35,176 nt of DNA, taken from contig JAADEW010000018.1 in NCBI GenBank assembly GCA_013153205.1, forward strand, positions 1-35,176, given 5' to 3'. This DNA is from Deferribacteres bacterium. Its GTDB lineage: Bacteria > Thermosulfidibacterota > Thermosulfidibacteria > Thermosulfidibacterales > Thermosulfidibacteraceae. The position numbers and the translations under genes were made by a program. Shown here piece after piece: positions 230 to 7,531 of this stretch (positions are counted from its first letter, which is position 1; every line of letters starts with the position of its first letter). The notes beneath the pieces were generated by a model. It did no database searches. It saw nothing but the letters and a program-made list of their open reading frames with translations, and was not told the DNA's origin.

Positions 230-262
230 GCCCCGGCTCCTTAAGGGCGCCGGGGCTTTTTT
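230..262 (+). terminator. Intrinsic terminator acting as riboswitch expression platform
   Basis: Perfect 8-bp GC stem GCCCCGGC (230-237) / GCCGGGGC (249-256) followed by TTTTTT (257-262). The 5' arm CCGGCTCC (233-240) is also complementary to B12-box GGAGaCCGG (145-153), giving a possible antiterminator. Confidence 0.8.
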
Positions 263-351: not shown

Positions 352-1755
352 ATGAGAAAGTGGTTGGTGGTGCTTGTTCTGGTCTTTTTTCCTTTTGCCG
401 CCTTTTCCGCTGATATCTCTCAGCAGGAGCTGAGACAGCTTGCCGAAACCATTAAGGAGCTGAAGGAGAGGGTGGCGTCTCTTGAGGAAAAGCTCAAAAA
501 GTATGAGGAAAGCGGGGCAAAAGGGGCTGGTGCCGGAGATGTTGCGGAGATGGAGAAGACCCTTTCCTCCCTCAAGGAGGCTCTGGGCAGTATAAAGATT
601 TCTGCCGACATAACCATGGTGGGGCAGGGAACCATCAACAATGGGGACAACATCAGGGGTGAGGGAGATGTGCAGGACGGTGCGTGGAGCTTTGATTTTG
701 AGGTTGAATCAAAGCTCTGGAAAGGAGCAACGGCTTACATGCTTATGGAAGGAGGGCAGGGAGAGGGCGTTGAGGACGAGGTGCCTACCCTTTCCGGTTT
801 TAACGACGACGCTCCCGGAACGGAGAGTGCGCATGTGGAGGTGACCAAAGCATGGTGGGAGCAGGAGTGGGAAGGAAAATGGGGCAGTTTTGTATTTACT
901 CTGGGTAAGGTGGATATAAGCGACTATTTTGACGCAAATGATGTAGCCAACGATGAGACCACTCAGTTTCTTTCAAGCGGTTTTGTCCACAACCTCGCTG
1001 TGGAGTGGCCCGATGATAACGGTCCGGGGGCAAGGCTCACCTTTCAGCCCGGCGATACTCTCTATGTGAGTCTGGGATGGGCAGAGGCTGATGGTGATTG
1101 GGAGGACATCTTTGACGACGGATTCGGAATAGTTGAGGTGGGGCTTCACACCAAGCTTTTCGGACTTGACGGGAACTACAGGGTTTATGCGTGGGTAAAC
1201 TGCAAGGACCACCTTGACGTCTCCCACCTGAAAGATGTGGCAGAGGGGAAAAGAGCCGTGTCAGAGGTTGACGACGATAAGACCAACTGGGGAGTGGGCT
1301 TTTCCTTTGACCAGATGGTTGCGGAAAACATGAAGCTCTTTTTGAGGGGCGGTATAATGGATTCTGATGTGGTCTCTGGCAGTGTTGAGGGTGATGGGAT
1401 TTCCGTTGATACCCTTCCCATCAACGGGGCTTTAAGCTTTGGCTTTTCCGTATCCGGTGCCTGCTGGGGAAGGGCTGGCGACGAGCTGGGTGTTGCTTTC
1501 GGGGTGGTCTTCGTTGACGACGAGGCTCAGAAGTTCTACCGGAATACCGAGCTCACCGATTACTATGACTACTTCAGGAAGCCTGACAGGGTTGATATAG
1601 CCAACGAATATCACCTTGAAGCCTACTACAGGATAAGCTTCTTTGACGGAAGGCTTGAGTTTACCCCTGACTTTCAGGTGGTCTGGAATCCCAACGGCAT
1701 TGATAATGCCGATACCGTTTATGTGCTGGGAACGAGGATGCAGGTTAACTTTTAA
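352..1755 (+). CDS. Outer-membrane porin, OprB/carbohydrate-porin-like beta-barrel with N-terminal coiled coil
   Basis: GGAGGTG (340-346) precedes the ATG at 352; the track's TTG at 334 is less likely. Signal peptide MRKWLVVLVLVFFPFAAFS|AD, then a heptad-like EELRQLAETIKELKERVASLEEKLKKYEE. The remainder is rich in alternating G/D/W/Y/F, includes an OprB-like DETTQFLSSGF block, and ends in ...RMQVNF with a C-terminal Phe typical of OMPs. Confidence 0.7.
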   Translation: MRKWLVVLVLVFFPFAAFSADISQQELRQLAETIKELKERVASLEEKLKKYEESGAKGAGAGDVAEMEKTLSSLKEALGSIKISADITMVGQGTINNGDNIRGEGDVQDGAWSFDFEVESKLWKGATAYMLMEGGQGEGVEDEVPTLSGFNDDAPGTESAHVEVTKAWWEQEWEGKWGSFVFTLGKVDISDYFDANDVANDETTQFLSSGFVHNLAVEWPDDNGPGARLTFQPGDTLYVSLGWAEADGDWEDIFDDGFGIVEVGLHTKLFGLDGNYRVYAWVNCKDHLDVSHLKDVAEGKRAVSEVDDDKTNWGVGFSFDQMVAENMKLFLRGGIMDSDVVSGSVEGDGISVDTLPINGALSFGFSVSGACWGRAGDELGVAFGVVFVDDEAQKFYRNTELTDYYDYFRKPDRVDIANEYHLEAYYRISFFDGRLEFTPDFQVVWNPNGIDNADTVYVLGTRMQVNF

Positions 1756-1769
1756 AAAGGAGGTGCGCT

Positions 1770-2759
1770 ATGAGAGGGTTTAGGACTTTGGTGATTGCAG
1801 GACTGATTTTTATCTGTTTATTTAGCTTTATCCAGCCTTCGGAGGCTAAGATGGAGAGAGGGAAGGAGAAGTCGGCTATCGTTCTTGCCTTTTTCGGCAC
1901 CACTTATCCTTCCGGGTTGAAAGCGGTGGTGAATATACTCCAGACGGTCAAAAAGGCGTTTCCCAATACCGAGGTGAGGGTGACTTTCACATCAAACATC
2001 ATCAGAAGCATATGGAGAAAGAGGCAGAAAGAAGCGAAACTGTGGCTTTCCCGCGGAGTGCCCAAAGAGATTCTCTACGTTAAAGGGATACTCGCTACTA
2101 TGGACGAACTTCAGGAGAGGGGCTACAAAAACATAGTGGTTCAGTCCACGCACATATACCACATGGAACAGGTGGAGGACCTCCTCTCTTACATAAGGGC
2201 GTTGAGGTCTATTGAGACGGTCAAGGAGAGGTGGAGACCGTTTCACAAAATTGCTTTTGGCAGGCCCATCTTTGGGGGTGTGGGGGATAAATACGATTAT
2301 CACGAGGACCTGAAGAAAGCAGTTCTTACTTTGAAGGACGACGTTGAGCTTGCAAGGAGAAAGGGAGCTGTTCTCGTCTATATGGGACACGGTAATGAGT
2401 TCTGGTCCACCGGCATTTACATTGAAGCTCAAAAGATGTTCAGAAAGCTCTTTCCCGATGTGCAGGTCTTTGTTGGAACGGTGGAGGGCTTTCCCTCTCT
2501 GGATGACGTGCTCTATCTGCTGAAGACCCATGCAAAGAGCAAAAAGATTATCCTGAAGCCGCTTATGGTTGTGGCTGGAGACCATGCGCACAATGATATG
2601 GCTGGAGATGAGCCTGATTCATGGAAGAATGTTTTTGAGAAGAACGGATTTGAGGTGACCCCCATCTTTGAAGGGCTTGGGGAGAAACCGGGTATAGCAA
2701 ACATAGTGGTTGAACACATTAAAGACGCCGCAAGAGATGCCGGTATAGTTCTGAAATGA
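1770..2759 (+). CDS. cbiK: CbiK-family sirohydrochlorin cobaltochelatase homologue carrying a signal peptide (exported form)
   Basis: RBS AAGGAGG. CbiK-like blocks AIVLAFFGTTYP, YMGHGNEFW, GTVEGFPS and MVVAGDHAHNDMAGDE are present, so the His/Glu/His catalytic positions are retained. N-terminus MRGFRTLVIAGLIFICLFSFIQPSEA|K looks like a Sec signal peptide. Confidence 0.85.
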   Translation: MRGFRTLVIAGLIFICLFSFIQPSEAKMERGKEKSAIVLAFFGTTYPSGLKAVVNILQTVKKAFPNTEVRVTFTSNIIRSIWRKRQKEAKLWLSRGVPKEILYVKGILATMDELQERGYKNIVVQSTHIYHMEQVEDLLSYIRALRSIETVKERWRPFHKIAFGRPIFGGVGDKYDYHEDLKKAVLTLKDDVELARRKGAVLVYMGHGNEFWSTGIYIEAQKMFRKLFPDVQVFVGTVEGFPSLDDVLYLLKTHAKSKKIILKPLMVVAGDHAHNDMAGDEPDSWKNVFEKNGFEVTPIFEGLGEKPGIANIVVEHIKDAARDAGIVLK

Positions 2760-3604
2760 CGGAGATAGAGGTCAGGTCTTTAAGAAAGAGGTTCGGAAAT
2801 ATAGAAGCTCTGAAAGGCGTGGATTTTGAGGTTAAAAGTGGTGAGATTTTTGCCTTTCTGGGTCCCAACGGGGCGGGTAAAACCACCACCATAAACATAC
2901 TGACGGGACTCATACTGAAGTATGAAGGGGAAATCTTTTATCGGGGGGAGCCTTTCTCCCCCCACAACCTCAAGTTCAAAAAGCTGATAGGGGTTGTCCC
3001 CCAGCACAACAACGTTGACAGGGACCTGTCTGTTGAGGCAAACCTCAAGGTTCACGGATACCTTCACGGCATCTTTGGGAGGAGGCTGAAGGAGGCTATA
3101 GACCGGGTTCTGGAGTTCACCGGACTTACCAACCACAAAAAGAGAAAGGCAGACCATCTTTCAGGTGGTATGAAGAGGAGGCTGGTTATAGCGAGGGCTT
3201 TGATGCACAATCCGGGTATCCTCTTTCTGGATGAGCCTACAGTTGGACTTGACCCTGCCGTGAGAAGGAGCATGTGGGACCTGATAAGAAGCGTTAACTC
3301 GCTTAAGGGATGCACCGTGTTTCTCACCACCCACTACATAGAGGAGGCTGAAATCCTTGCGGATACGGTGGTTATAATAGACAGCGGCAGGGTGGTGGCC
3401 TGCGGAAAACCCGATGAGCTGAAGAGAAGGGTCGGCAGGTATGCCCTTGAGATTTACTACCAGGACAGGATTGAGGAGGAGTTTTTTGAAACCAGAGAGG
3501 AAGCCCTTGAAAGGCTGAAAAGCCTTGATGTGCCTGCTAAAATAAGGGAAGTTAACCTTGAGGATGTGTTCCTGAAGATAACGGGAAGGAGAATAGAGGT
3601 TTGA
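2756..3604 (+). CDS. ABC transporter ATP-binding protein (ABC-2/DrrA-like subfamily)
   Basis: Walker A GPNGAGKTT, signature LSGGMKRRL, Walker B ILFLDEPTVGLD, H-loop TTHY. ATGA overlap with the cbiK stop. Confidence 0.85.
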   Translation: MTEIEVRSLRKRFGNIEALKGVDFEVKSGEIFAFLGPNGAGKTTTINILTGLILKYEGEIFYRGEPFSPHNLKFKKLIGVVPQHNNVDRDLSVEANLKVHGYLHGIFGRRLKEAIDRVLEFTGLTNHKKRKADHLSGGMKRRLVIARALMHNPGILFLDEPTVGLDPAVRRSMWDLIRSVNSLKGCTVFLTTHYIEEAEILADTVVIIDSGRVVACGKPDELKRRVGRYALEIYYQDRIEEEFFETREEALERLKSLDVPAKIREVNLEDVFLKITGRRIEV

Positions 3605-4344
3605 AAGGGGTATGGGCGGTTTTTTACAGGGAGGTTATGTTTCTGAAGCCGAGGTTTTTAAAGGTGATGCTTTCCTCCATCATATATCCCGCTCTGTTTC
3701 TGCTTGCCTTCGGCTACGGTCTCGGGAAGAACGCCAGGGTGGGAAATCTGGATTATGTGGTCTTTCTTATTCCCGGGTTGATAACCATGAGCAGTATGAA
3801 TCAGGCTTACGGCATCTCCCTTGAGGTTCACATATCCCGCTACTACTTCAAGATATTTGAGGAGTATCTTCTTGCTCCCATTAACCGCTGGGAGATAGTG
3901 GTGGGCGAGCTTCTCTACGGAATATTCAAAGGGCTTATCCCGGCTTTCTTCATCACCCTTTATGCCCTTATTTCCGGGATTGGCATAAGGTTGAATCTGG
4001 TTTTTGCCATATGCCTGCTTCTGCATCTTATCTGCTTCTCTCTCATCGGCTATGTGATTGCCATGCTGGTCAAGTCCCATGCGGACCAGGCGGCTTTCAG
4101 CTCTTTTGTGATGGTTCCCATGATATTTCTTTCGGATACCTTTTACCCTATTGAGAAGATGCCTGCGCTGGCGAAGTACATCGGTTACCTCTTTCCCCTC
4201 ACCTATTCCACCAAACTGATAAGAGGGGCTCTTTTAGGGATAGATTCTATGGTTACTTTCAGGAATTTTGCCCTTCTGTTCACCATAACTTTTGCGCTTT
4301 TTGTAATTGCTATATGGGTGACTCAAAGGGCGGAGGTGGTGTAA
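3601..4344 (+). CDS. ABC-2 type transporter permease
   Basis: About 6 predicted TM helices and about 247 aa. N-terminal FYREVMFLKPRF is typical of ABC-2 permeases. The TTG start overlaps the stop of the upstream ATPase; start codon is uncertain. Confidence 0.75.
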   Translation: MKGVWAVFYREVMFLKPRFLKVMLSSIIYPALFLLAFGYGLGKNARVGNLDYVVFLIPGLITMSSMNQAYGISLEVHISRYYFKIFEEYLLAPINRWEIVVGELLYGIFKGLIPAFFITLYALISGIGIRLNLVFAICLLLHLICFSLIGYVIAMLVKSHADQAAFSSFVMVPMIFLSDTFYPIEKMPALAKYIGYLFPLTYSTKLIRGALLGIDSMVTFRNFALLFTITFALFVIAIWVTQRAEVV

Positions 4345-5303
4345 TTAAAAAGCGATACCTTTTTGCTCTTATCCTGCCCCTTGTAGTGGGGGGAGTCTCG
4401 CTTTTTGTGGGTTCCGTTAAGGTGAGCCCGTTTCACCTAACAGGTGAGGGGCTTTACATTCTGAAAACCTTCAGGTTTCCCAGAGTGGTATTTGCTCTCA
4501 TAAACGGTGCCCTTTTGGGGGTGAGCGGCTGTGTTTATCAGCTTATCCTGCGCAATCCCCTTGCCGATGGCTTCACCACGGGAGCCGCCGGTTCATCTGC
4601 GGTGGGAGCCGTTGTTGCCATATCACTGGGACTTCCCATAGGGTATGTGCCTGTTCTGGCGCTGGTATCAGGTCTTCTGGGTCTCTTTTTGGTTTACAGG
4701 ATTTCCTCAAGAGGGGGGCTGATAAACCCTGTTACCATGATACTTGCAGGGGTTGTGGTCAACATCATATCTTCGTCTGTAATAGGATTCCTCAAATACG
4801 CCTTTGAGGAGTCTGTTACCGCCGTTGTCTTCTGGCTTATGGGGGGCTTTTACGCGGTAAGCTATTCCAAGATAGCTTTTGCTTTTCTGGTCTTTGTAGC
4901 CGGCTTTCTCTTTCTGATTTCCAGGGGAAGCACCCTTGATGTCCTCTCCTTTGACGACCTCTCTGCTAAAAGCATGGGGGTTGATGTGGACAGAATGAGG
5001 CTTGTTCTTTTTGTGGTTTCAACCCTTTTTGTGGCGGTGAGTGTCTCCTTCTGTGGAATAATAGGCTTTGTGGGGCTGATAGTGCCTCACATTGTGAGAG
5101 CCATTTTCGGTGCGGGTATGAGGGATAATCTGCTCTTTTCCGCCTCTTTTGGAGCCTCTCTTCTATGTCTGTCCGATGCCCTTTCAAGGAGCGTCATCCC
5201 GTCAGGAGGAGAACTGCCCGTGGGTATCGTTACTTCCATTTTTGGAGGGGGATTCTTCCTCTATCTTCTCATCAGGCGGCAGAGGGAGCTCTGGCATGTA
5301 TGA
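4314..5303 (+). CDS. btuC: FecCD-family ABC permease (BtuC-like corrinoid/siderophore importer)
   Basis: Highly hydrophobic 329 aa. FecCD-like blocks RFPRVVFALINGALLGVSG, NPLADGFTTGAAG, GIIGFVGLIVPHIVR and PVGIVTSIFGGGFFLYLL. Confidence 0.8.
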   Translation: MGDSKGGGGVIKKRYLFALILPLVVGGVSLFVGSVKVSPFHLTGEGLYILKTFRFPRVVFALINGALLGVSGCVYQLILRNPLADGFTTGAAGSSAVGAVVAISLGLPIGYVPVLALVSGLLGLFLVYRISSRGGLINPVTMILAGVVVNIISSSVIGFLKYAFEESVTAVVFWLMGGFYAVSYSKIAFAFLVFVAGFLFLISRGSTLDVLSFDDLSAKSMGVDVDRMRLVLFVVSTLFVAVSVSFCGIIGFVGLIVPHIVRAIFGAGMRDNLLFSASFGASLLCLSDALSRSVIPSGGELPVGIVTSIFGGGFFLYLLIRRQRELWHV

Positions 5304-6006
5304 CTTGAGGGTGTCCGGTCTTTGCGTGGAAAGAGGTGGGTTTCGGCTTGGGCTTTCTCGCCTTTTCATAGGATACGGCGAGAAGGTGGCGGTCATGGGG
5401 GAAAACGGCTCAGGGAAGAGCACCCTGCTGCTTTCTCTGTGTGGAATGTTGTCTTTTAGGGGGGAGGTTTTATACGGTGATAAGCCTGTTTCCGCACTCT
5501 CTTTCAGGGAGAGGGCGAGGATTTTTTCCTACCTGCCGCAGAATCCGGAGATACTTTTTCCCTACACTGTTGAAGAGATAGTTTCTCTGGGATTTGACCG
5601 TTCGGATAAAGACTTTTTAAAGGAGGTTTTCAGCCTTTTTGAGCTTGAGGCAATGAAAAAAGCCAGGATAACGGAGCTTTCGGGAGGGGAGAAGAAGCGC
5701 GTTTTTATAGCAAGGGCTGTGGCTCAATCCGCTCCCATTCTCTTTCTGGATGAGCCCACATCCTCTCTTGATGTGCGGCACAGGGTGCGGTTTCTGGAGT
5801 ATTTGAAGGAATTGAAGAAGACTGTCTGTTGCGTGATGCACGATGTTAACGAAGCTTTGAGGTATTTTGACCGCTTTTTATTTTTAAAAAAGGGTGAGCT
5901 GGTGTATGATTTAAAAAAGGAGGAGGTCAATGAGGAAGTTCTTTCTGACGTTTTTGATGTTGCTGTCTCTTCTTGCCAGTGTTTCGTCTTTTCCTGCTCA
6001 CGCTAA
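5296..6006 (+). CDS. btuD: BtuD/FepC-like ABC importer ATPase
   Basis: An in-frame ATG at 5296 overlaps the btuC stop (ATGTATGA). Walker A GENGSGKST, signature LSGGEKKRV, Walker B ILFLDEPTSSLD. The track's 5149 start would overlap btuC by 155 nt and is unlikely. Confidence 0.8.
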   Translation: MYDLRVSGLCVERGGFRLGLSRLFIGYGEKVAVMGENGSGKSTLLLSLCGMLSFRGEVLYGDKPVSALSFRERARIFSYLPQNPEILFPYTVEEIVSLGFDRSDKDFLKEVFSLFELEAMKKARITELSGGEKKRVFIARAVAQSAPILFLDEPTSSLDVRHRVRFLEYLKELKKTVCCVMHDVNEALRYFDRFLFLKKGELVYDLKKEEVNEEVLSDVFDVAVSSCQCFVFSCSR

Positions 6007-6736
6007 GGTTTACAAAAGGGTTGTGGTGCTTGCTCCTGCCGCCGTTGATATTTTTGAGAAGCTTGACGCCGCAGACCTGATAGTGGGAGTTACTAAAAAT
6101 GTTAAGGGGCTTCCCCATGCAAAGAGGGTCGGGTCCCACATAAGGCCCAACCTTGAGCTGATAGCCGCGTTATCTCCGGATTTGATTGTTATATCTTCAA
6201 ACAGGTTTTTTGCTCCGGCTTTTGCGAAAAAGCTGAACGCGGATATCTTTTACTACAACCCGGTTACCCTTGAGGGTATTATCGCCAAGATAGAGGAGCT
6301 TGCGGGATTGATAGGAAGAGAGGATAAGGCTTACTCTCTGGTGAGAGAGCTTAAAAATAAGCTTTCTTCTGTCAAGCCTCTCAAAAAATCTCCCCGGGTT
6401 GTGTATGAGGTTATGGAGCATCCCCTCATCTTTGCCGGTAAGAAGAACATTGTGGCGGACATAATACAGAAGGCGGGGGGAACCTTCCTTCCAGATATTC
6501 CCAAGAAGTTTGTTAGATTTTCTTACGAGAGGATTCTGGTGTTGAAGCCAGACATATACATCTATCAGGTGGGTCCCATGAACAAGAATCCCACCCCTCC
6601 CCTCAAAAGGCCTTATCTCAAGGGGCTAAAAGCTGTCTTTTTAAGGGTCAACGAGCTTGACTTTTCCCGACCCAACACCAGAAGCTTTGATAACGTGCTC
6701 TTTCTCAACAGGGTATTTTATGAGCTGGAGGAGTAG
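5930..6736 (+). CDS. btuF: Periplasmic substrate-binding protein, class III (BtuF-like)
   Basis: RBS AGGAGGAGG. Signal peptide MRKFFLTFLMLLSLLASVSSFPAHA|K. Typical Peripla_BP_2 start RVVVLAPAAVDIFEKLDAADLIVGVT...PNLELIAALSPDLIVIS. Confidence 0.75.
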   Translation: MRKFFLTFLMLLSLLASVSSFPAHAKVYKRVVVLAPAAVDIFEKLDAADLIVGVTKNVKGLPHAKRVGSHIRPNLELIAALSPDLIVISSNRFFAPAFAKKLNADIFYYNPVTLEGIIAKIEELAGLIGREDKAYSLVRELKNKLSSVKPLKKSPRVVYEVMEHPLIFAGKKNIVADIIQKAGGTFLPDIPKKFVRFSYERILVLKPDIYIYQVGPMNKNPTPPLKRPYLKGLKAVFLRVNELDFSRPNTRSFDNVLFLNRVFYELEE

Positions 6737-6738
6737 AG

Positions 6739-7221
6739 ATGGAGAAGGCACCGCACTTTTGTCTTGAAGGCATAACGCCGGACGGAAAGGTTAAGACCAT
6801 ATGTCTGGACGAACTTCTTTCGCAAAAGCCTTTTCTGGTTCTTTACTTTTATCCTAGGGACAACACCCCCGGATGCACCAAGGAGGCTTGTGAGTTCAGG
6901 GATAACCTTTCACGCATTACCCCCTATGCCACCGTTGCCGGAATAAGTCCGGACAGCATCAAAAGCCACGAGAATTTCAGAAAGAAGCATGAGCTCAACT
7001 TTTACCTGTTGAGCGACCCTGAAAAGGAGGTGTGCAGGTTATACGGGGCATACGGGGAGAAGAAGATGTATGGCAAGGTGCGGGAGGGAGTTATAAGGTC
7101 AACCTTTATTATCTCATCCGATGGGATTATTTTAAAGAGTTGGAGAAACGTCAGGGTCAAAGGGCACGTTGACAAGGTGATTGAAGAGCTCAAAAGACTT
7201 TCGGAGGGTGAGGGTGAGTGA
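6739..7221 (+). CDS. bcp: Peroxiredoxin Bcp/PrxQ (thiol peroxidase)
   Basis: Motif YFYPRDNTPGCTKEACEFRD (peroxidatic and resolving Cys), about 160 aa. Starts 2 nt after the btuF stop. Confidence 0.85.
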   Translation: MEKAPHFCLEGITPDGKVKTICLDELLSQKPFLVLYFYPRDNTPGCTKEACEFRDNLSRITPYATVAGISPDSIKSHENFRKKHELNFYLLSDPEKEVCRLYGAYGEKKMYGKVREGVIRSTFIISSDGIILKSWRNVRVKGHVDKVIEELKRLSEGEGE

Positions 7222-7531
7222 ATTCGTGGCAGTTATGACCACCACGGATGATGAGAAGGTGGCTGAAAAAATTTGCAGAACATTGGTTGAGGAGAGGCTT
7301 GCCGCATGTGCGCAGGTTATTAAAGGCATAAAGAGCTTTTACTGGTGGGAAGGGAAGGTGGAGGAGAGTGAGGAGTTTCTGATATTTTTGAAAACAAAGG
7401 CACAGCTTCTTCCGAGGCTTGAAGAGAGGCTGAAGAGGCTTCACAATTATTCCGTTCCGGAGATAGTGGCTCTGCCTTTTGTTTCCGGTAGCAGAGAGTA
7501 TTTTGACTGGATGCTTGAGAATCTGATTTAG
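7214..7531 (+). CDS. cutA: Divalent-cation tolerance protein CutA
   Basis: CutA1 blocks [31 protein letters not shown] and [19 protein letters not shown]. Start is uncertain: GTG at 7214 follows GGAGGGTGAGG, while the track's ATG at 7181 overlaps bcp by 41 nt. Confidence 0.8.

Follow-up and report, generated by a model that had tools for sequence, protein, structure and literature searches.

A CbiK-family chelatase with a conserved signal-peptide-like leader, encoded with a BtuCDF-type importer behind a cobalamin riboswitch

Introduction

In the textbook route of anaerobic B12 synthesis, cobalt is inserted into sirohydrochlorin in the cytoplasm. What, then, would a homologue of the chelatase CbiK do with an export signal? 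The question is raised by contig JAADEW010000018.1 of assembly GCA_013153205.1, a stretch of 35,176 nucleotides (hereafter the window), in which a gene for a CbiK homologue with a signal-peptide-like leader lies in an operon behind a cobalamin riboswitch, together with genes for a porin, an ABC-2-type ATPase and permease, and a BtuC/D/F-type importer. The window is contig C105 of the host genome, a metagenome-assembled genome (MAG) of 1.16 Mb that is 71% complete and has Aquificota MAGs as its nearest named relatives. Throughout, G numbers denote genomes (G000 being the host), C numbers its contigs, L numbers loci and P numbers CbiK homologues or representatives.

The physiological role of exported CbiKs has reportedly been unsettled since the work on CbiK(P) of Desulfovibrio vulgaris (2008-2017). 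For the window protein we give a roughly even chance to a reading in which a chelatase exported to the periplasm works there on cobalt and a tetrapyrrole of the isobacteriochlorin or corrin type and supplies the BtuF-CD importer. Three points appear to be new: a separate clade of exported CbiKs with long inserts, an exporter-plus-importer cassette that occurs across four phyla, and the finding, in several de novo producers, of no class II chelatase other than the exported-type CbiK.

Family, fold and metal site of the window protein

The window protein (329 amino acids) matches PF06180 with 244.1 bits against a cut-off of 26.2, over profile positions 2-261 of 262 and with the domain starting at residue 36. 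It is confirmed as a class II chelatase of the CbiK family, with cobalt insertion into sirohydrochlorin as a possible reaction; the threshold of the NCBIfam CbiK equivalog NF047852 is missed (137.3 bits, cut-off 400). Matches in the PDB are 2xvx (3e-31), 9b86 (6e-30) and 1qgo (8e-24). The AlphaFold2 model (pLDDT 92.4) comprises a helix at residues 2-19, a disordered linker at 22-30 and, from residue 34, the two-domain alpha/beta chelatase fold, for which Foldseek gives TM-scores, normalised by target length, of 0.92 to 2xvz, 0.89 to 1qgo and 0.88 to 9b86.

In residue mappings read off HMMER alignments, H207 (in MGHG), E239 (VEG) and H272 (GDH) correspond to H145, E175 and H207 of the Salmonella enterica enzyme and to H154, E184 and H216 of CbiK(P), and this triad is invariant in 121 of 121 aligned family members. 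An initial annotation, made from the window alone, had described a CbiK homologue with a Sec-like leader and intact metal ligands, and the description agrees with these results. Among the residues that it named, the His of GHG, the Glu of VEG and the first His of a GDHAH motif are the conserved ones, while the second His of that motif (H274) is not conserved in the family. Conservation is high over the whole chelatase fold and extends to two inserts specific to the clade, in which Trp, Arg and Tyr residues are invariant.

The leader and its start codon

Residues 1-26 of the window protein consist of R2 and R5, an uncharged stretch of 19 residues and the end S-E-A↓K, with small residues at positions -3 and -1; the leader has no twin-arginine motif and no L-x-x-C lipobox at its end. 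From this anatomy we infer Sec export and cleavage at A26↓K27. The same N-terminal anatomy is found, despite differing sequences, in 111 of the 119 nearest homologues (54-95% identity, from Aquificota, Deferribacter and Desulfobacterota), whose n-regions have a mean charge of +2 and whose uncharged stretches, with a median of 21 residues, mostly end in small residues before a Lys-rich linker.

The ATG of cbiK lies 14 nt after the stop codon of the porin gene and 7 nt after AAAGGAGGT. An upstream ATG is in frame in 18 orthologous loci for which the 5' gene end is present (19 with the window), and it is preceded by a GGAG-type site in most of them, a weak one in a few. Across four phyla the sequence of the leader drifts, yet its frame and signal-peptide anatomy persist, which is not expected of untranslated DNA; the comparison indicates that the leader is not a chance extension of the reading frame. 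The apparent Sec signal peptide of the initial annotation is in this way borne out, and a true start at Met28, with the leader untranslated, is not upheld by the orthologues.

A separate feature was observed in many Desulfobacterota homologues (among P0032-P0120; loci L011, L061 and L063), which have a His two or three residues past the predicted cleavage site, for example AG↓HGK, A↓EEHGK and A↓MGHH. These N-termini resemble an X-X-His (ATCUN-like) metal-binding motif, which the window protein does not have.

A conserved cassette behind cobalamin riboswitches

The gene order signal-peptide CbiK, ABC-2 ATPase, ABC-2 permease, BtuC, BtuD and BtuF recurs outside the window, in full in Aquificota relatives, Denitrovibrio acetiphilus, Geothermobacter ehrlichii, Malonomonas, a Nitrospirae MAG and two further bacteria; the Malonomonas, Nitrospirae and two further loci were reached via distant homologues of the ABC-2 permease. 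Four such distant homologues (44-52% identity) all lie in a CbiK/BtuCDF cassette (4/4), and the CbiKs beside them have signal-peptide-like N-termini in every case (4/4), two of the four being of the short-insert type described below. Synteny of CbiK with BtuC/D/F spans Aquificota, Deferribacterota, Desulfobacterota/Desulfuromonadales and one Nitrospirae MAG. In the Deferribacter variant the ABC-2 pair is divergent and upstream, and in the Desulfobacterales variant just CbiK and BtuF/C/D are adjacent. A porin precedes CbiK in the Aquificota loci L002 and L004-L006 as it does in the window. Most carriers of the cassette are anaerobes or thermophiles.

In every one of the 15 loci with sufficient upstream sequence, the window among them, the genes are preceded by a cobalamin riboswitch (15/15). 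The Deferribacter operon runs from the riboswitch through CbiA, CbiK, BtuCDF, CobA, CbiL, CbiC and CbiJ to CobU, with further genes before the last. The two further bacteria have the order CbiA, CbiC, CbiD, a tetrapyrrole methylase (201 aa), the riboswitch with CbiK, ABC-2 and BtuCDF, and then methylases, CbiG and CbiJ, and CobA or CbiL stands directly 3' of BtuF in Denitrovibrio, Geothermobacter and Malonomonas. The initial annotation had taken direct riboswitch control as an argument for a periplasmic role. The linkage of riboswitch and BtuF-CD is real and conserved across phyla; riboswitch control by itself is no argument for the periplasm, and that step was rejected because a leaderless homologue, P0208, is riboswitch-controlled too.

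The family profile of the BtuF-like protein is about equally distant from solved haem binders (IsdE, HmuT) and from the B12 binder BtuF, which points to a tetrapyrrole rather than a free ion as the cargo. A complex prediction for the BtuF-like protein and CbiK (mature residues 26-268 and 31-329, with alignments) scored 0.00 against a mark of 0.32, with controls not run, and is no evidence either way.

The host genome holds a second B12-riboswitch operon on contig C40 (L045, 1-9529), with a near-identical riboswitch. Its order is TonB-dependent receptor, DUF2162, ExbB, a CobN-like protein of 1249 aa, a CbiZ-domain protein of 408 aa and CobA, and both the CobN-like and the CbiZ-domain proteins have signal-peptide-like N-termini. 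Judged by their N-termini and regulation, three homologues of "cytoplasmic" B12 enzymes in the host (CbiK, CobN and CbiZ) look exported and B12-regulated. Membrane proteins of the PepSY_TM type were seen in two cassette loci, between CbiK and the ABC-2 ATPase in the Nitrospirae locus (L060, 4582-5145) and after CbiL in Geothermobacter (L057, 9561-10112).

De novo pathway genes and other chelatases

Genes of the anaerobic de novo pathway are present in the host: CbiL and CbiD on C28, CbiG and a CbiH-CbiC fusion on C69, and CobS on C9. On C28 (L014, 165-2282, minus strand) a 153-aa CysG-N/SirC-like gene stands between cbiL and cbiD; its product matches TIGR01470 with 85.5 bits, over the cut-off, and covers model positions 1-146 of 205 only. 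The same short gene lies directly upstream of cbiD in G004 and G006 (Aquificota) and in G031 and G032, which are Deferribacter isolates. Its product is a possible substitute chelatase in the cytoplasm. On C69 (L015, 718-2049) the CbiH-like methylase and CbiC are fused in one reading frame, with CbiG before it, and a degenerate-looking copy of this fusion frame occurs in the relative G002, in which CbiK and CbiD are absent.

One PF06180 gene and no separate PF01903 gene were found in the host MAG at its 71% completeness, so that the initial annotation's check for a second, cytoplasmic cbiK or cbiX turned up none there. A second PF06180/PF01903 chelatase was likewise not found in G004 and G006 (99% complete), in G007, G009, G011, G031 and G032, and in three Desulfobacterales MAGs, apart from one borderline PF01903 match of 21 bits in G009. 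Among the relatives, the presence of CbiK follows that of CbiD. In G017 (73% complete) CbiK was found and CbiD and CbiC were not, and that genome is too incomplete to count as a salvage-only carrier.

A strict claim that CbiK is the sole chelatase was rejected. The CysG-N/SirC-like gene is beside cbiD in every genome checked, and a CobN-like protein, in a TonB-type operon and with a signal-peptide-like N-terminus, occurs in G000, G001, G003 and G008, so the claim is limited to CbiK/CbiX-type (class II) chelatases. Geothermobacter encodes a cytoplasmic CbiX-CbiC fusion alongside the cassette; the exported CbiK is thus more than a stand-in for a cytoplasmic chelatase. As to cobalt, the host encodes the importer component CbiM (on C78, where no riboswitch was found close by), as do G007 and G009, and CbiM is also present near the Desulfobacteraceae locus; neither CbiM nor NicO was found in G004 and G006 (99% complete). 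CbiM-type systems may also carry nickel.

Long-insert and short-insert clades of CbiK

A tree of 108 representatives at 50% identity, calculated with the N-terminal part left out, has a deep split (SH-aLRT 96) between a long-insert clade, which contains the window protein, and a short-insert clade. The long-insert clade has two conserved inserts (~15 and 10-15 residues), and in it signal-peptide and leaderless members are mixed. The short-insert clade comprises the canonical leaderless CbiKs and a mostly signal-peptide subclade of CbiK(P)-like proteins and FetB-like lipoproteins of Bacteroidota. The window protein is accordingly placed outside the canonical leaderless clade. Signal-peptide-like N-termini were found in 52 of 111 representatives, and at least five gains or losses of the leader are needed to account for the well-supported branches; by these counts exported CbiKs are predicted to be common, with the lineage of the window protein in a different clade from the two studied ones. 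Exported CbiKs of both clades are found in the same cassette.

Two CbiK(P)-like proteins of the short-insert clade, P0257 and P0289, have His at both haem-ligand positions. Five leaderless long-insert proteins (P0226, P0227, P0246, P0258 and P0248) have lost a catalytic residue, with Ala, Asn or Ser in place of the Glu or Arg in place of the last His, and may be non-catalytic binding proteins. Another leaderless protein, P0214, lies among RND efflux and phosphonate genes, with no cbi genes and no riboswitch there.

A proposed periplasmic chelatase feeding the importer

In the reading that we favour, low adenosylcobalamin would let transcription pass the riboswitch, and the Sec-exported CbiK would act as a component of a B12-repressed envelope cassette that also comprises the porin, the ABC-2 exporter-type pair and the BtuC/D/F importer. 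Its His/Glu/His site would hold the metal over a tetrapyrrole, so that periplasmic CbiK would bind Co2+ and an isobacteriochlorin- or corrin-type ring, either made by the cell itself and exported or scavenged. The metallated product would then pass to the BtuF-like protein, and BtuCD would carry it in to the cbi enzymes of the cytoplasm. The identity of the tetrapyrrole, the direction of the reaction and the passage of the product to BtuF are inferred, as are export and cleavage. The envelope context agrees with this reading, as the porin, BtuF and the CobN-like and CbiZ-like proteins of C40 all have signal-peptide-like N-termini and are riboswitch-linked.

A more specific form, which we regard as tentative and rather unlikely, would place the cobalt-insertion step of anaerobic B12 synthesis itself in the periplasm, as a shunt of the de novo pathway. 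The ABC-2 pair would pump out self-made sirohydrochlorin, the exported CbiK would load it with Co2+ entering via the porin, BtuF-CD would take Co-sirohydrochlorin back in, and CbiL, which stands at the end of the cassette in several lineages, would continue the pathway. The pathway intermediate would thereby double as a cobalt-capturing ligand. Such a shunt would explain the leader, the catalytic site, the presence of both exporter and importer, the riboswitch and the finding of no other class II chelatase in de novo producers.

Several observations weigh against a periplasmic chelatase. The cassette lies inside cbi operons and adjoins CobA and CbiL, which is the context of an ordinary cytoplasmic biosynthetic enzyme, and the exported-type CbiK is the only PF06180/PF01903 chelatase found in the de novo producers listed above. 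The gene of P0208, a leaderless long-insert CbiK with 53% identity to the window protein, comes first behind a cobalamin riboswitch that has a clear terminator (L047, 6675-14381). With CbiM in the host genome and near the Desulfobacteraceae locus, a cytoplasmic cobalt supply is predicted there. Finally, the linker after the predicted cleavage site is Lys-rich, with a mean net charge of +1.1 in the homologues, and a Lys-rich stretch after the cleavage site can hinder Sec export in Escherichia coli.

Alternative explanations

In one alternative the hydrophobic N-terminus would be untranslated or unused for export, and the product from Met28 would be an ordinary cytoplasmic CbiK. Such a product fits the cbi-operon context and the lack of another class II chelatase among those found, a ribosome-binding-like motif precedes the internal ATG, and a protein begun at Met28 would have an N-terminus matching that of S. 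enterica CbiK. We nevertheless hold this to be highly improbable: of the two start sites the upstream one, immediately behind the preceding stop codon, usually has the stronger GGAG-type motif at good spacing (18 loci), the leader keeps its frame and anatomy across the four phyla, and several family members have no internal start of any kind. Two isoforms from one gene, an exported precursor from the first ATG and, from Met28, a leaderless cytoplasmic CbiK as the de novo cobaltochelatase, form a possible but doubtful alternative. It would account for the class II chelatase that is otherwise not found in de novo producers. In the window GGAGG stands 5 nt before ATG 1851, and (A)GGAG(G) precedes the equivalent ATG in 9 of 15 loci and in three contexts (SEAKM, AGEGM and TGVSM), and beyond these in Denitrovibrio and Malonomonas, against a background of 8.25% of internal in-frame ATGs with such a motif in the host genome. 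All ~36 nearest full-length homologues, of the Aquificota/Deferribacter group, have a Met near the predicted cleavage site, and gene callers picked the internal start in four homologue clusters. These counts overstate independence, since the loci are related, and the motif is weak or absent in L003, L005, L025, L013 and L060. A Met by the mature N-terminus could have another purpose, the Desulfobacterales loci L010 and L011 have neither an internal ATG nor an obvious alternative start and yet a single CbiK, and Geothermobacter, which has a cytoplasmic CbiX, still retains both leader and Met.

If export is accepted, what the protein binds divides the remaining alternatives. A periplasmic CbiK that binds metal only, as a Co2+ scavenger or chaperone without tetrapyrrole chemistry, would leave cobalt insertion to the SirC-like protein by cbiD in the cytoplasm. 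The invariant residues are indeed metal ligands, the first gene of the operon encodes an OprB-family porin with a faint resemblance to an iron-uptake porin model, and the CysG N-terminal-domain homologue beside cbiD would be at hand for the insertion, CysG and Met8p being able to insert cobalt. We consider this quite unlikely, in that the transporter is of the FecCD/BtuCD type and the nearest solved relatives of its binding protein bind haem or B12 rather than free ions, while the fold and the two inserts with their invariant residues are conserved beyond the needs of a metal site. The SirC-like protein is also short and matches its model in part, and SirC-type enzymes can be dehydrogenases only. 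A role in haem or iron acquisition, with an importer for haem or iron, would make the window protein similar to CbiK(P) as a haem carrier or to IhtB/FetB of Porphyromonas gingivalis as a haem dechelatase or chelatase. CbiK(P) and FetB are the nearest solved structures, the NCBIfam model that the binding protein matches best is that of the haem binder IsdE (61.8 bits, far below its cut-off), and R79 and E116, which align with the tetramer-interface pair R54/E76 of CbiK(P), are conserved. His96 and His103 are the reported haem ligands of CbiK(P); for these, as for its His154/His216 and Arg54/Glu76 sites, the numbering was partly checked by alignment. The alignment that confirmed the metal ligands has E136 and R143 in place of the two haem ligands, and both columns vary across the family, so the haem-carrier role of CbiK(P) does not transfer and that version was rejected for want of equivalents of His96 and His103. 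The deep clade of the window protein differs from that of the CbiK(P)-like and FetB-like sequences, its leader lacks a lipobox, and every locus with sufficient upstream sequence stands behind a cobalamin riboswitch, many of them inside cbi operons. A haem or iron role is on these grounds very unlikely.

Three outcomes are possible: that cobalt is inserted outside the cytoplasm in these organisms, that one gene yields two isoforms, or that there is an unrecognised cytoplasmic chelatase, the exported CbiK then doing something new with cobalt or corrinoids. Each of them, if true, would alter the annotation of B12 pathways and of cobalt acquisition. As carriers of the cassette include cultured strains (Deferribacter, Denitrovibrio acetiphilus, Geothermobacter ehrlichii and Malonomonas rubra), the site of cobalt insertion is directly testable.

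Comparison with known systems

The closest parallel is CbiK(P) of D. vulgaris (PDB: 2xvx, 2xvy and 2xvz). It is reported to purify with haem, and details of its localisation by GFP are likewise said to be given, in the work of Romao (2011) and Lobo (2008 and 2017). Besides it, D. vulgaris has a second, cytoplasmic CbiK(C), whereas no second CbiK was found in the host genome and in several near-complete relatives. Like the window protein, CbiK(P) combines the CbiK fold with an N-terminal export signal and the His/Glu/His metal site, and its gene is under cobalamin riboswitch control with a BtuCDF-type importer and CbiL. It differs in being ~30% identical and in belonging to the short-insert clade, the window protein having ~34 extra, highly conserved residues in its two inserts, and in the ABC-2 pair and porin that the window operon adds. 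CbiK(P) has been described as periplasmic. For Desulfovibrio, a B12 element over cbiK-cbiL and btuCDF was described as early as 2004 (PMC545781), and riboswitch linkage with btuCDF is reported again for O. alaskensis (PMC11124144). PMC11568245 still regards the physiological role of CbiK(P) as undetermined.

The second studied case is IhtB/FetB of P. gingivalis (PDB: 9b86; ihtABCDE), described as an outer-membrane lipoprotein that loads tetrapyrroles with metal ions in vitro and is required for production of Mn-PPIX (PMC13065792, PMC12094164). It shares with the window protein an exported CbiK fold encoded with a FecCD-type ABC importer and a binding protein. FetB has 30% identity to the window protein and falls in the short-insert clade; it is a lipoprotein with a TonB-dependent receptor as partner and a link to haem/PPIX and iron or manganese, whereas the window has no lipobox, an OprB-type porin upstream instead of a TonB-dependent receptor, and ties to cbi genes.

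The cytoplasmic sirohydrochlorin cobaltochelatase of S. enterica (PDB: 1qgo and 2xwp) is similar in fold and catalytic residues, and in several lineages of the window family the gene keeps the same company of CobA, CbiL, CbiC, CbiD and CbiJ. That enzyme has no leader and 27% identity; the window family has two extra inserts and always adjoins a BtuCDF-type importer. A looser analogy is provided by the CobN-like proteins BtuS and HmuS of Bacteroidota B12- and haem-uptake operons, where a homologue of a cytoplasmic-type chelatase likewise sits in an uptake locus. Unlike the window protein they are class I rather than class II chelatase subunits, and the link of such a protein to the CbiK cassette is shared regulation, in the host only. 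Their uptake loci have TonB/ExbB parts (PMC6460266), and the CobN-like protein on host contig C40 is comparable.

Organization of the window operon

The features of the operon are given in Table 1. The terminator-like hairpin behind the aptamer is not listed by a simple consensus scan, its loop being longer than 8 nt. The ATG of the porin gene comes after TAGGAGGTG, the ATG of the ABC-2 ATPase gene overlaps the stop codon of cbiK (ATGA), btuF overlaps the last 77 nt of btuD (5930-6006) and starts after AGGAGGAGG, and the gap from btuF to the Bcp gene is 2 nt. From the porin through Bcp, neighbouring genes either overlap or are at most 14 nt apart, so that they are probably translationally coupled. 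Membership of Bcp and CutA in the cassette is uncertain; neither was found in the cassettes examined from other phyla.

Table 1. Features of the window operon, with positions in the window
Feature	Positions	Strand	Evidence
Cobalamin riboswitch aptamer, 5' part cut by the contig end	1..172	+	Rfam RF00174, 62.7 bits (gathering score 31.5)
Terminator-like hairpin (CCCCGGC...GCCGGGG) and T6, probable expression platform	231..262	+	Sequence reading, RNAfold
OprB-family outer-membrane porin, signal-peptide-like N-terminus, first gene 3' of the riboswitch	352..1755	+	PF04966, 131.5 bits
CbiK leader, residues 1-26, signal-peptide-like, predicted cleavage SEA↓K	1770..1847	+	Homologue anatomy, AlphaFold2 model
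CbiK-family class II chelatase, long-insert clade, triad H207/E239/H272	1770..2759	+	PF06180, 244 bits
Internal GGAGG, 5 nt spacer and ATG (Met28); possible second start, leaderless isoform	1836..1853	+	Sequence motif
ABC-2-type (DrrA/NodI-like) ATPase	2756..3604	+	PF00005; TIGR01188, 261 bits, under its cut-off
ABC-2 permease, exporter-type architecture, without its own binding protein	3601..4344	+	PF01061, 77 bits
BtuC/FecCD-type importer permease	4314..5303	+	PF01032, 251 bits; best NCBIfam matches are BtuC models, under cut-offs
BtuD-type importer ATPase, start taken as ATG 5296	5296..6006	+	PF00005; best NCBIfam matches are haem/corrinoid ABC ATPases
BtuF-like periplasmic binding protein, signal-peptide-like N-terminus	5930..6736	+	PF01497
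Bcp peroxiredoxin	6739..7221	+	PF00578
CutA	7181..7531	+	PF03091

The start of the window (nt 1-91) is identical to the start of contig C40, and the end of contig C52 bears the 5' half of a cobalamin riboswitch, which overlaps the identical starts of C105 and C40. We read this overlap as an assembly fork at a duplicated riboswitch, which would put the true 5' end and promoter of the window operon probably on C52.

In the porin, a charged segment of heptad-like character (~residues 25-60; window 352-600) stands between the predicted signal peptide and the barrel. The place of the porin gene is held in the Nitrospirae locus L060 by a gene of similar size without a Pfam match. In L047, the locus of P0208, CbiK is followed by DUF3450, two ExbB, ExbD, TonB, a TPR protein and CbiZ, and a haem-synthesis cluster (HemN-like, HemE, HemH and HemY-like) lies upstream.

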